The position numbers and the translations under genes are program-made. DNA of 64,000 nt. It comes from Myxococcales bacterium. GTDB lineage: Bacteria; Myxococcota; Myxococcia; Myxococcales; UBA5297. The notes under the pieces are model-generated. The model was given only the letters and a program-made list of their open reading frames with translations, ran no database searches and was not told where the DNA came from. The stretch covers positions 18,407 to 82,406 of the forward strand of contig JBNKEI010000033.1 of assembly GCA_050288705.1 (NCBI GenBank), read 5' to 3'. Below, in pieces: positions 6,043-25,046 of the stretch. Every line of letters begins with the position of its first letter. The first letter of the stretch is position 1.

Positions 6043-6327
6043 TTACTCAGAATCGAACTCGATGGACTGGCCTTCCTTGAGAATGACTACCGCTCGCTTC
6101 CAGTTGGGACGCCGCCCAATCGAGCGACCCACTCGTTTCTTTTTTCCACGAAGTATGGCGGTACGGACTTCAATCACATTCACTTTGAAAAATTGTTCCA
6201 TCGCTTGACGAATTTCTGTCTTATTGGCCCGACGATCCACTACAAAGCCATAACCATTATATTCTTCCCGAATTCTTTCGAATTTTTCGGTAACGACCGG
6301 CCCTTTAACAACATTCGCGAGGTTCAT
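6043..6327 (-). CDS. rplW: 50S ribosomal protein L23
   Basis: 94-aa ORF, VKGPVVTEK...NKTEIRQAMEQFFKVNV, in the expected operon position. Confidence 0.95.
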   Translation of the reverse strand: MNLANVVKGPVVTEKFERIREEYNGYGFVVDRRANKTEIRQAMEQFFKVNVIEVRTAILRGKKKRVGRSIGRRPNWKRAVVILKEGQSIEFDSE

Positions 6328-6971
6328 CGCACCAACGCTCCTTCCAGTTGCTTTGCCGCAGACACAGTCATCACTAGCGTGTCATGCACGAGCAGGCTTT
6401 CCAGATTCAATCCCTCTGGAGCTAGAACATCAAACCGAGCTAGGTTACGAACGCCACGATGTAGATTGATATTCTCTTTGCTGTCAATCACCAACGCATT
6501 TTCTAGCTTGAGCCCATTACATAGTATCCAAGAGAACGCTTTGGTAAGGCGCCCCTTCTCACCATTGCCCTGCCCTACAACCTCGATTTTGTCAAGAATC
6601 AAAACCTTGCTATCTCGAGCTAGCTGCGACAAAGCAACCTTAAGCGCACCACGCCTCACCCGCCACGGCGGACGATAACTATAGTCACGCGGCTTGGGTC
6701 CCATGGCCTTTCCTCCACCGACCCAGTGTGAAGCACGAATGGAACCCTGTCGAGCTCTGCCAGTCTTTTTTTGTTTCCACGGTTTCTTTCCGCCACCAGA
6801 TACCAACGACGTATTTTTTACCGCTACAGTACCCGCGCGCCGGTTAATCGCTTGAAACTTTGCGACTTCATAAATTAGGTTCTCATTAGAATCGACCGCA
6901 AATACTGCGTCCGCCAACTCCACTTCCGAAACCTTTTGTCCTTCTGTGTCCAATACATCAAACCTTGCCAT
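6324..6971 (-). CDS. rplD: 50S ribosomal protein L4
   Basis: 215-aa ORF with KPWKQKKTGRARQGSIRASHWVGGG. AAGAGG SD upstream. Overlaps the rplW start by 4 nt. Confidence 0.96.
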   Translation of the reverse strand: MARFDVLDTEGQKVSEVELADAVFAVDSNENLIYEVAKFQAINRRAGTVAVKNTSLVSGGGKKPWKQKKTGRARQGSIRASHWVGGGKAMGPKPRDYSYRPPWRVRRGALKVALSQLARDSKVLILDKIEVVGQGNGEKGRLTKAFSWILCNGLKLENALVIDSKENINLHRGVRNLARFDVLAPEGLNLESLLVHDTLVMTVSAAKQLEGALVR

Positions 6972-6999
6972 GGCCGCCTCTTAAAAATGGTCCAATCCT

Positions 7000-7311
7000 T
7001 TAGGACCCTATCTCCACGTCCACACCTGCCGGCAAATCAAGCTTCATCAACGCGTCTAGCGTCTGCTGAGTAGGCTCGAGTATGTCGAGGAGACGTCTGT
7101 GTGTGCGGATCTCGAACTGTTCACGGCTCTTCTTGTCGCCGTGGGGGCTGCGCAGCACGGTAACCTTGTATATACGCGTAGGAAGCGGAATAGGTCCCGC
7201 TATTTCTGCGCCCGTGCGCCTGGCAGTTTCCACGATTTCCCCAACTGACTGGTCGAGCAGTTTGTGGTCATATGCCTTCAGCCGAATCCGGATCTTCTGG
7301 GTTGCCATCAA
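7000..7311 (-). CDS. rpsJ: 30S ribosomal protein S10
   Basis: [18 protein letters not shown]...; the stop lies only 28 nt upstream of the rplD start. Confidence 0.97.
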
Positions 7312-7439: not shown

Positions 7440-8633
7440 TTACTCAATGATTTCCGAAACCACCCCAGCACCTACCGTACGCCCACCCTCTCTGATGGCG
7501 AATCGAAGCTCCTTTTCCATGGCAATCGGCTTCGAAAGGCTAACCTCGATCGTAATGTGATCGCCAGGCATTACCATTTCTACCCCTTCAGGCAACTGGA
7601 CCGCCCCGGTAACATCAGTCGTTCGGAAATAGAATTGAGGCCGATACCCCTTAAAAAACGGCGTATGCCTTCCCCCTTCATCCTTGCCCAGCACATAGAT
7701 TGCAGCCTTAAATTTGGTATGCGGGGTCACAGATCCGGGAGCAGCAAGAATTTGGCCTCGTTCGATGTCGTCGCGCTTCAAACCGCGAAGTAAACATCCG
7801 ACATTATCGCCAGCCATACCTTCGTCGAGCAATTTGCGGAACATCTCCACGCCAGTCACTACGGTCTTAGAGGTTCCGCGCAAACCAATGATCTCAATCG
7901 CATCGCCTACCCTGATCTTACCACGCTCAATTCTTCCGGTGGCGACAGTTCCCCGACCTTCAATAGAAAACACATCTTCTACGGGCATCAAAAATGGCTT
8001 GTCTAACACCCGTTGTGGCTCGGGAATATTCGCATCCAGCGCTTCCACCAATGCGTTAATGGATTCCGTTCCTTCTATTCCCTTACTTTGCATAGCCTTT
8101 AAAGCAGTCCCACGAATAACTGGAATAGAATCACCAGGGAACTGGTACTTAGTCAACAGCTCCCGAACCTCCAGCTCAACCAAATCCAGAAGCTCCGTAT
8201 CGTCTACCAAGTCACATTTGTTAAGAAACACTACGATAGCTGGAACATTGACCTGACGCGCTAACAACACATGCTCTTTGGTTTGAGGCATTGGGCCATC
8301 CGCCGCCGACACCACAAGAACAGCTCCGTCCATTTGAGCTGCACCAGTAATCATATTTTTAATGAAATCGGCGTGTCCCGGGCAATCGACGTGCGCATAG
8401 TGGCGCTTGTCCGATTCATATTCAACGTGCGCCACTGCAATGGTCACGATTTTAGAATCATCGCGCACTGTACCACCCTTGGCGATATCGGCATACTCCT
8501 TCGCCTTAGCGAGTCCCTTCGCCGCCTGGGTGAAGGTGATAGCCGCAGTCAGAGTAGTTTTACCGTGATCTACGTGACCGATAGTACCTACGTTCACGTG
8601 AGGCTTTTTCCGTTCAAATTTTTCCTTGGCCAT
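7440..8633 (-). CDS. tuf: Elongation factor Tu (divergent switch-I loop)
   Basis: 397 aa with [13 protein letters not shown] and NKCD motifs and a highly conserved C-terminal half. Sits in the str-operon position after fusA. Confidence 0.96.
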
Positions 8634-8686: not shown

Positions 8687-10765
8687 CTACCGGCCTCGCA
8701 TTCGAGCCACGATGTCACTAGATATTCCACTTGGCACTGTCTGGTAATGCGAAAATTGCATAGTATAGGTTGCACGTCCTTGCGTGGCAGATCGAACATC
8801 GGTAGCATAACCAAACATACCTGCCAATGGCACCTGAGCCGTAACAACCTGCACACCGAAACGTGGTTCCATACCAAGAATTCGCCCTCTTCGGCTATTT
8901 AAATCGCCAATTACGTCGCCGGTGTACTGCTCTGGAGTAGTCACTTCACAACTCATGATTGGCTCCAGTAAAATTGGGCCCGCCTTTTCCGATCCATCCT
9001 TGAGCGCCATAGAAGCTGCAATTTTGAAAGCCATTTCACTAGAGTCAACTTCGTGAAAGCTCCCATCAAGCAAGGTGACCTTAACATCCACCATCGGATA
9101 CCCTGCCAGTATTCCGCCTTCCATCGCCTCGATAACGCCCTTTTCTACTGCAGGTATGTACTCCTTGGGAATCGCCCCGCCAATCACTGCATCTATAAAT
9201 TCGAAGCCTTTACCGGTTTCGTTTGGCTGCAACAATAGCCAACAGTGCCCATATTGCCCACGCCCACCAGACTGGCGAACATATTTACCCTCGACGCGAA
9301 CCTCTTTAGTTATCGTTTCACGATAAGCAACCTGTCGCTTGCCTATATTGGCCTCAACCTTAAACTCCCTACAAAGCCGATCGACAATTATCTCTAGATG
9401 GAGCTCACCCATCCCACTAATGAGAGTTTGTCCAGTTTCCTCATCCGTACGAACTCGAAACGAAGGATCCTCGAATGACAACTTAGCAAGCGCAGAACTC
9501 AGTTTGTCTTGATCAGCCTTGGTTTTTGGCTCAATAGCTATAGAAATAACCGGTTCTGGGAATTCCATTTTTTCTAAAACAATGGGTCTCGCTTCATCAC
9601 ACAGCGTTTCGCCAGTTACAGTATTCTTTAATCCAACTGCCGCTGCAATGTCACCAACATAAACTACATCAATATCTTCTCGCTTATTAGCATGCATTTG
9701 CAGCAATCGACCAATACGCTCTCGCCGCTTCTTCACCGAATTATATACGTAGCTACCCGACTCTATCTTTCCCGAATAGACTCTAAAATAGGTCAAGGCC
9801 CCAGCAAAGGGATCGGTTTGTATTTTAAAAGCTAGAGCCGAAAAGGGAACTCTTTCATCAACCGATCTACTATCCTCCTGACCATTCAAGGCATTCCCTT
9901 GCACTGGCGGCACGTCTTTTGGCGAGGGAAGAAAATCAATTATAGCATCAAGCAGGGGCTGTACACCCTTATTCTTGAACGCCGACCCGCAAAGAATGGG
10001 AACAACCTTCATGGAGATACAACCCTTCCTCAGGCCAGCAACCACCCGCTCCAACGATGGCTCCTTACTCTCCAAAAATGCATCCATCACTTCATCGTCA
10101 AACTCAGCAGCAGCCTCAATCATCCTGGATCGCCATTCACGAGCCTGACATTGAAGAGAATCGGGAATATCCTGAATATCGACTTTTGCACCCATCGCGT
10201 CTTCTTCAAAACGCAGAGCTTTCATTCGAAGCAAGTCAATTACTCCCTGAAAGCCATCCTCCTGTCCCCAAGGAAGACACACTGGAACAGGATGCGCACC
10301 AAGCCGCCGCCTAATCGTTTCCACGACCCGAAGAAAATCGGCACCAACTCGGTCCATCTTATTCACAAATGCAATACGAGGAACCCTATACTTATCCGCC
10401 TGCCGCCAAACCGTCTCCGACTGCGGCTGAACACCACCAACCCCGCAAAAAACCGCGACAGCACCATCAAGAACCCTTAGCGACCGCTCTACTTCGATAG
10501 TAAAATCAACATGTCCGGGCGTATCAATTATATTGATTCGACAATCACGCCAGAAGCAGGTTGTAGCAGCAGAGGTGATGGTTATACCCCTCTCCTTTTC
10601 CTGCACCATCCAATCCATGACGGCCGTACCGTCATCAATATCGCCGATCTTATGAGTTACACCAGTATAAAACAGTATCCGCTCGGTAGTAGTCGTCTTA
10701 CCAGCATCAATGTGCGCCATGATGCCGATATTCCGATATTTTTCTGTCGGATACTGCTTCGACAT
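8687..10765 (-). CDS. fusA: Elongation factor G
   Basis: Canonical N-terminus [25 protein letters not shown] from the ATG at 10765, with a GAAGGTGAG SD. The track ORF (to 10906) adds 47 implausible residues. Confidence 0.96.
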
Positions 10766-10928
10766 AGACTCACCTTCGCTGCGGCTTTCCCGCCACATTG
10801 GCAACAAAAAAATCCGTCGCCACGCCAATTCATTTACGCTCGTGTCAAAGAACACGAACAACCAGAGCCACACAGGCTCTCTAAGCAAGGGCGAGCTACA
10901 TAACAAAACACGCCCGAATTGTCAACCG

Positions 10929-24210: not shown

Positions 24211-24229
24211 CTTCTACCCCTTCCTAATA

Positions 24230-24303
24230 CAGGCCAGGAGGGATTCGAACCCCCAACATGCGGTTTTGGAGACCGCCGCTCTACCAATTAGAGCTACTGG
24301 CCT
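24230..24303 (-). tRNA. tRNA-Trp (anticodon CCA)
   Basis: The minus-strand sequence AGGCCAGTAGCTCTAATTGGTAGAGC...CTCCAAAAC...GGTTCGAATCCCTCCTGGCCTG folds as a cloverleaf with a 7-bp acceptor and a CCA anticodon. No 3' CCA is encoded. Confidence 0.93.
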
Positions 24304-24359
24304 ATTTCTTTTAGCACACTAAAACTGTCACAAACGGCCGCTCCCCGATGCTCTTACCC

Positions 24360-24512
24360 CTATTTGGTTTCTTTGTGATCAGTATGCTTACGGCACCGCT
24401 TACAATATTTGGAGAGCACCAGCTTATCAGGAGTAGTTCTCTTATTCTTGGTCGTTGAGTAGTTTCGCTCTCTACAGGCTGTACACTCAAGCGTAATAAT
24501 GGTGCGATTCAT
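24360..24512 (-). CDS. rpmG: 50S ribosomal protein L33 (CxxC...CxxC form)
   Basis: Hand-translated 50-aa ORF, below the track cutoff: [50 protein letters not shown]. Confidence 0.93.
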
Positions 24513-24543
24513 TGCTTGACCTTTCTGATACCTTCATTTTGAG

Positions 24544-24616
<73 letters not shown>

Positions 24617-24643
24617 ATCACTTACAGCATTGTCCTTCAAAAG

Positions 24644-24716
24644 AGCGGGAAACGGGATTCGAACCCGCGACATTCAGCTTGGAAGGCTGACGCTCTACCA
24701 TCTGAGCTATTCCCGC
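24644..24716 (-). tRNA. tRNA-Gly (anticodon TCC)
   Basis: Minus strand GCGGGAATAGCTCAGATGGTAGAGC...CCTTCCAAG...GGTTCGAATCCCGTTTCCCGCT. Confidence 0.93.
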
Positions 24717-24776
24717 TTAACATACTTACTTACACTTCATTCTTCTTTGGCCGACATCTCTGACCATAAACATCCT

Positions 24777-24859
24777 TGGACGGGGAAGGGTTCGAACCTT
24801 CGTAGGCATAAGCCGGCAGATTTACAGTCTGCTCCCTTTGGCCGCTCGGGCACCCGTCC
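24777..24859 (-). tRNA. tRNA-Tyr (anticodon GTA, long variable arm)
   Basis: Minus strand GGACGGGTGCCCGAGCGGCCAAAGGG...ACTGTAAAT...variable arm...GGTTCGAACCCTTCCCCGTCCA. Confidence 0.92.
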
Positions 24860-24940
24860 AGAAAACTTAGGTTACTTCTGCTCCATGCGTTTTTACACTC
24901 ACTATCCTGCAAACCTCAGCAGCAAATGCAAATGCCGTTT

Positions 24941-25013
24941 AGCCGGCGGCGGGAATCGAACCCGCGACCCCCTGCTTACAAGGCAGGCGCTCTACCAGCT
25001 GAGCTACACCGAC
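24941..25013 (-). tRNA. tRNA-Thr (anticodon TGT)
   Basis: Minus strand GTCGGTGTAGCTCAGCTGGTAGAGC...CCTTGTAAG...GGTTCGATTCCCGCCGCCGGCT. The acceptor contains two G:U pairs. Confidence 0.9.
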
Positions 25014-25046
25014 CAGCTGCTTATTCGAAACAAAAACAGGAGGCGG

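Follow-up and report, generated by a model that had tools for sequence, protein, structure and literature searches.

A widespread RDxxK variant of the switch-I loop in a probable housekeeping elongation factor Tu of a Myxococcales bacterium

The elongation factors Tu (EF-Tu) that have been characterised typically carry the sequence xAPEExxRGITI in their switch-I (effector) loop, a pattern that the TIGR00485 model does not require and whose near-invariance in textbooks rests on Proteobacteria, Firmicutes, Thermus and organelles. The specialised paralogues Streptomyces Tuf3 and SelB depart from the canonical sequence; they are additional copies, located outside the str operon and divergent over the whole protein. 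Jenkins and Fuerst are said to have described in 2001 (J Mol Evol 52:405-418) a unique 11-amino-acid motif in the EF-Tu of Pirellula marina as a signature of planctomycetes, a motif which we take to be the RDxxK loop of type A treated below. Their work is cited in PMC3444138. In E. coli EF-Tu, Thr61 is the switch-I sensor of the γ-phosphate and its modification traps the open form, Lys56 is a methylation site, and Arg58 adjoins the sarcin-ricin loop, its mutation lowering the GTPase activity (PMC5851678, PMC2586802).

The window, as we call the whole 64-kb stretch of DNA that was analysed, encodes an EF-Tu (Table 1) with 67% identity to that of E. coli over the full length. With the TIGR00485 EF-Tu equivalog model it scores 684.6 bits over residues 1-397, above the cut-off of 522.4, and it comprises the G domain and the β-barrel domains II and III (PF00009, PF03144 and PF03143, respectively). 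The three domains, the G1-G4 motifs, the operon position, the catalytic His and the Mg-binding Thr are common to this protein and canonical EF-Tu as known from E. coli and Thermus (PDB-codes: 1EFC, 1EFT, 1TTT). The gene order rpsL-rpsG-fusA-tuf-rpsJ is that of a housekeeping tuf, and because rpsJ adjoins it, the gene occupies the str/S10 housekeeping position. Considering these features together with the evidence presented below, we regard the window tuf as very probably the real, ordinary housekeeping EF-Tu gene of its lineage, with a switch I of the RDxxK type A. A minor, conservative difference lies in the G5 motif at residue T176 (8106..8108, minus strand), which reads R-G-T-A-L-K here and R-G-S-A-L-K in E. 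coli and most relatives.

Table 1. Features of the tuf region and of the second classical tuf slot, in window coordinates.
Feature	Position	Strand	Basis or remark
tuf	7440..8633	-	397-aa EF-Tu; translation, E. coli identity, TIGR00485, Pfam GTP_EFTU/D2/D3
Variant switch-I (effector) loop, residues 49-65, type A, +2 aa	8439..8489	-	computed coordinates; motif kept in homologues
Thr64 codon	8442..8444	-	aligns with E. coli Thr61 (Mg2+/γ-phosphate ligand)
R57-D58-D59-S60-K61 codons, RDxxK core	8451..8465	-	alignments
P-loop GHVDHGKT, residues 19-26	8556..8579	-	canonical; translation
Switch-II DCPGH, residues 83-87, catalytic His87	8373..8387	-	canonical; translation
NKCD guanine-specificity motif, residues 138-141	8211..8222	-	translation
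fusA, EF-G (706 aa by the source annotation)	8687..10807	-	directly upstream of tuf
rpsJ (S10)	7000..7308	-	directly downstream of tuf
tRNA-Thr(TGT)-Tyr-Gly-Thr(GGT) ... tRNA-Trp cluster, before secE-nusG-rplKAJL-rpoBC	24229..25014	-	
Classical second tuf slot, 238 nt, empty	24305..24542	-	between tRNA-Thr(GGT) and tRNA-Trp

In comparison to its canonical relatives, the differences of the window EF-Tu cluster in residues ~33-67. Where canonical EF-Tu has APEExxRG, it has GGTVRDxxK and two further residues. An earlier note on this DNA had located a loop longer by two residues, with the Thr kept, at residues 49-65, and had described the APEE and RG elements as replaced in an EF-Tu that is otherwise canonical and stands beside an EF-G with ERGITI; coordinates, alignment and translations all agree with this description. 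Of the consensus xAPEExxRGITI, T64-I65 alone is retained, and the distance from Ile50 to the Mg-binding Thr amounts to 14 residues compared to 12 in E. coli. Switch I of the EF-G encoded by fusA in the same operon is of the canonical ERGITI form.

The loop fits the pattern I-[AT]-K-G-G-[TI]-x-R-D-x-[ST]-K-x-V-T-I, which we call type A. In a MAFFT alignment the canonical row K-A-P-E-E/R-E/- -/R-G-I-T-I faces K-G-G-T-V/R-D/D-S/K-I-V-T-I in type A and K-A-S-E-K-Q-G-R/R-D/D-T/K-I-L-T-I in the longer type B, with K61 aligned with E. coli Arg58 and V63 with Ile60. Residues Y47, I50, K52, R57, T64 and I65 are invariant among the 39 homologues of alignment A1, and A51, D58 and K61 are almost so; the latter two do not vary at all in 117 dereplicated variant sequences, and the aligned columns of canonical EF-Tu hold Glu and Arg. 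The canonical Arg58 is Lys in the RDxxK loop, and Gly59 is replaced by Ile or Thr and E. coli Asp50 by Ala or Thr. Outside the loop, the only change seen to co-vary with the loop state is Met140 to Leu142 beside the NKCD motif, a weak signal that is not corrected for phylogeny.

All 60 matching EF-Tu sequences in the PDB are canonical and none has the RDxxK loop; the best of these alignments leave a two-residue gap facing GGTVRDDSK. An AlphaFold2 model of the window protein (mean pLDDT of 82) matches EF-Tu structures in its fold with an E-value of ~1e-62. It adopts an open, GDP-like form, with a TM-score of ~0.8 to GDP structures and ~0.5 to GTP structures. A hairpin of residues 55-57 and 63-65 follows a short helix (residues 47-51) in this model, but the pLDDT is below 55 there, as it is throughout residues 51-70 and also in switch II, so the model is no evidence for the geometry of the loop. 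Because of this low confidence, the residue-by-residue assignment of functions given next is drawn from the sequence alignment.

How could a factor with such a loop work? We propose that a type-A factor would work as any EF-Tu does. T64, as the counterpart of Thr61, would bind Mg2+ and the γ-phosphate, and V63, as the counterpart of Ile60, would make up the half of the hydrophobic gate that belongs to switch I. Perhaps together with the invariant R57, K61 would provide the positive charge of Arg58 near the sarcin-ricin loop and the aminoacyl-tRNA. The equivalent of Arg58 is ambiguous and could be either of the two, and R57 could share or assume the Arg58 role; D58 may stand in for the acidic Glu. 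Since T64, V63, K61 and D58 have counterparts in the alignment, the essential chemistry would be retained. The loop changes appear to fall where switch I refolds, and the two extra residues would extend this stretch, which alternates between a helix in the GTP form and a β-hairpin in the GDP form.

How far the loop is conserved among relatives was assessed with the best 120 protein clusters from a collection of 5.8 billion sequences. The window-type loop is present in ~100-110 of them, and IAKGGT[VIL]RDxSKI[VL]TI occurs, barring rare single-residue variants, in each of the 83 full-length clusters whose identity is 81-100%. Alignment with related taxa, which had been suggested as a check, thus reveals a clade-wide loop. 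The submitters' labels of the near relatives are Myxococcales, Myxococcaceae or Anaeromyxobacter. Two canonical proteins of 475 and 491 aa (P0029, P0042) were set aside, their score being inflated by the extra length. Among the 54 representatives at 50% identity that include the N-terminus, 44 are canonical, 2 have the RDxxK loop and 8 another sequence, counts that are unusable as a census, the representatives found being for the most part fragments and fusions. The G+C content is 48% in the window and 50% in tuf, and 65% in the contigs of a relative (L124) whose EF-Tu is 87% identical; base composition therefore shifts widely inside the lineage of the window.

The distribution over the bacterial tree was followed by a genome scan with the back-translated motif R-D-x-x-K-x-x-T-I-x-x-x-H-V-E-Y over 185,579 GTDB species, with one genome per species. 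At least 120 loci match, and all 120 among the matches listed are tuf genes. They fall into two length classes, with two (type A) or five (type B) residues more than the canonical loop. Type A, which reads IAKGG[TI]xRDx[ST]KxVTI, accounts for 75 of the 120 loci among the matches listed. These comprise at least 34 loci of Verrucomicrobiota (including an Akkermansia MAG), at least 27 of Planctomycetota and at least 7 of Myxococcota, the last including the complete RefSeq genome of Sorangium cellulosum So ce26; further loci belong to Bdellovibrionota and Elusimicrobiota. Type B, VAKASExxGRRDxTKI[LMV]TI, is found among the matches listed in Acidobacteriota, Gemmatimonadota, Nitrospirota, Kiritimatiellota and Lentisphaerota, as well as in part of the Phycisphaerae, in Omnitrophota and in several candidate phyla. 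The segment A-K ... R-D-x-x-K-x-x-T-I and the housekeeping positions are common to type B and the window type A, whereas type B (as in VAKASESQGRRDxTKILTI) is three residues longer and retains KA[SP]E, which resembles the canonical KAPEE.

Taken together, RDxxK EF-Tu of both types occurs in more than a dozen phyla among the matches listed. In Pseudomonadota, Bacillota, Actinomycetota, Bacteroidota and Cyanobacteriota there is essentially none among these matches, three oddly labelled MAG contigs aside. Where flanking genes are present in the matches listed, the order is tRNA-Thr-tuf-tRNA-Trp-...-rplK-rplA in the majority and fusA-tuf-rpsJ in at least ~25 loci, and no 8-kb locus of a variant gene with flanks contains a second tuf. 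In many phyla, which together make up much of the bacterial tree, EF-Tu normally carries the RDxxK loop, so this loop is a known variant and no peculiarity of the window genome. The lineage-specific innovation that the earlier note had considered does not survive the occurrence of the same loop, and of the form with five additional residues, in so many phyla among the matches listed; the same note had named wide occurrence in a known clade as an outcome that would speak against it, and the genome scan found just that. Its description of switch I as nearly invariant is right for the structurally studied phyla and fails beyond them, given the spread of the RDxxK loop. A sub-variant of type A with a longer preceding segment, KDIAKGGIDRDATKTVTI, was observed in two loci with Myxococcota labels (L012, L060) and three with Phycisphaerae labels (L037, L050, L119), in every case in a tRNA-tuf-tRNA-Trp context. 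Its presence under two phylum labels could reflect transfer or mis-binning.

A full-text search of the literature found no open-access paper that discusses the RDxxK loop and no occurrence of the loop strings. The planctomycete EF-Tu of the fetched loci (IAKGGTVRD[ED]TKTVTI) shares its type-A loop with the window protein; compared to the planctomycete signature, however, the type-A motif is not unique to planctomycetes among the matches listed. The window organism itself is not a planctomycete, as its relatives are labelled Myxococcales and it has in common with Polyangia loci an S10 operon without rplC; an uncultured member of the Myxococcota is its most probable source. Public databases already list this very protein, along with thousands of its relatives, under the name elongation factor Tu.

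Whether the loop had a single origin or was transferred was approached with a loop-masked neighbour-joining tree of 133 sequences and 100 bootstraps. In this tree the type-A clade of the window has the type-B proteins P0088 and P0096 as its sister group, with 93% bootstrap; only shallow nodes are supported, the deep nodes reaching 0-21%. With residues 30-70 masked, the mean identity of the window clade is 83% to these type-B sisters, 82% to a canonical group labelled Anaeromyxobacteraceae, 74% to E. coli, and 73% to the type-A EF-Tu of Polyangia, Verrucomicrobiota or Planctomycetota. The state of the loop therefore does not track the similarity of the EF-Tu backbone. In a synonymous-site test, third-codon-position identity in the loop region was no higher for type-A than for canonical loci, which gives no sign of a recent transfer of the loop. 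The simplest series would lead from the canonical loop to type B, by an insertion of five residues after the Arg, and on to type A by a deletion of three residues.

Two contigs with mosaic tuf genes were inspected. The protein P0087, with a canonical loop, 80% identity to the window EF-Tu and 92% to the type-A protein P0017, had appeared to be evidence for a loop swap and was discarded, because its contig (L123; ENA ERZ724040 NODE_16647; 3.9 kb at 2.7x coverage) is chimeric. From tuf nucleotide ~270 on, its DNA is 100% identical to that of the type-A contig L124, whereas upstream of this point the identity is only 68%; the 3′ end of fusA and the first ~90 tuf codons come from a canonical-loop organism and have a GC content of 58%, compared to 66% in the L124 part, and the junction is inside a conserved region of tuf. 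The other mosaic EF-Tu, P0271, is encoded on a contig of 3,266 bp (L127) from the very fragmented assembly GCA_036706575.1. Its residues 1-75 are canonical and resemble the P0272 group, while from there on it matches the type-B protein P0088 (L128) with an identity of 98% in protein and ~87% in DNA. The gene order on this contig is tRNA-Thr-Tyr-Gly-Thr cluster - tuf - rpsJ - rplD, so that the upstream neighbour is not fusA. L127 could be a natural recombinant, a chimera, or the product of a cross-over between two copies in one genome. A genuine L127 would mean that the sister clade can hold canonical and variant forms side by side or exchange them.

Could the loop be an error, or the mark of a copy with a special task? 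The probability that it arose as a sequencing or assembly artefact in this 50-nt segment is practically negligible. NCBI assembly GCA_050287685.1 encodes the identical protein on a contig of 145,693 bp, and so does a Logan assembly made independently from run SRR36185847. This agreement rules out the local assembly error that had been considered at the outset; moreover, the reading frame is intact, and the same motif recurs in unrelated assemblies by the hundred, a finished genome among them. It is also very unlikely that the operon gene encodes a specialised paralogue while a canonical-loop tuf elsewhere does the bulk of the work, the second of the readings proposed in the earlier note. Such a pair of genes would fit with the L127 mosaic, which could stem from a cross-over within a genome that has two copies of tuf, but the first apparent canonical close relative turned out to be the chimeric contig of P0087. 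The gap between tRNA-Thr and tRNA-Trp is the usual site of the second tuf in two-copy bacteria, or of the sole tuf in many others. Both classical positions are inside the window and the one in the str operon alone is filled, which makes a specialised paralogue unlikely; tblastn detected no remnant of tuf in the empty slot and no second tuf in the 64-kb window. In contrast to Tuf3 and SelB, the window gene is in the str operon and its divergence is limited to ~35 residues, so that neither divergence over the whole protein nor a location outside ribosomal operons applies to it. Variant genes elsewhere, where flanks are readable among the matches listed, are likewise in housekeeping slots and have no second tuf in their 8-kb loci. 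In most of the fetched genomes tuf occupies the tRNA-Thr/tRNA-Trp slot that is empty in the window.

Is the switch-I segment a mobile cassette, so that the window lineage or its canonical relatives gained their state by short-patch recombination or gene conversion instead of vertical descent? The window clade is nearer to the canonical group labelled Anaeromyxobacteraceae and to its type-B sisters than to the other type-A groups, and yet the type-A loop is nearly identical across Polyangia, Verrucomicrobiota, Planctomycetota and the window clade; the L127 mosaic points in the same direction. On the other hand, the tree does not support its deep nodes, rate differences among phyla could yield the same pattern of identities, the third codon positions give no sign of recent transfer, and one of the two mosaics is chimeric and the other sits on a short contig of a fragmented assembly. 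We therefore consider a mobile cassette unlikely. A further proposal, which we hold to be quite unlikely, is that the RDxxK loop is not just a neutral clade marker but an alternative switch state that is exchanged between lineages by short-patch recombination, may stand beside a canonical copy in some genomes, and is kept for altered ribosome-stimulated GTPase kinetics or regulation, or for escape from toxins or proteases. Under this proposal the context of Lys56 methylation and Thr61 phosphorylation would be altered; alternatively, toxins and proteases directed at switch I, such as the Lit protease, could lose their universal target R-G|I-T-I.

As an ordinary housekeeping gene with a type-A loop, the window tuf needs no special explanation, and the remaining interest is a general one: a strongly conserved alternative effector loop whose occurrence follows the EF-Tu backbone only in patches. 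Much of bacterial diversity translates with a loop that has no Arg-Gly and exceeds the canonical length by 2 or 5 residues. The groups with this longer loop include the PVC phyla except Chlamydiae (none among the matches listed), Acidobacteriota, Nitrospirota, Gemmatimonadota, Polyangia and Bdellovibrionota. This is of relevance for the modelling of EF-Tu from these phyla, for EF-Tu-directed antibiotics and toxins if they depend on the switch-I sequence, and wherever the indel is to serve as a phylogenetic marker.

The genes downstream of tuf show a feature of their own. The S10 operon of the window (6324..7311, minus strand) runs rpsJ, rplD, rplW, rplB without rplC, and an L3 query gave no match within the 64-kb window. 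The S10-L4 order without rplC is also present in the relatives L121 and L124-128. Among the fetched loci that extend past rpsJ, S10-L4 is further seen in the Myxococcota loci L006 and L077, and S10-L3 in every other phylum.
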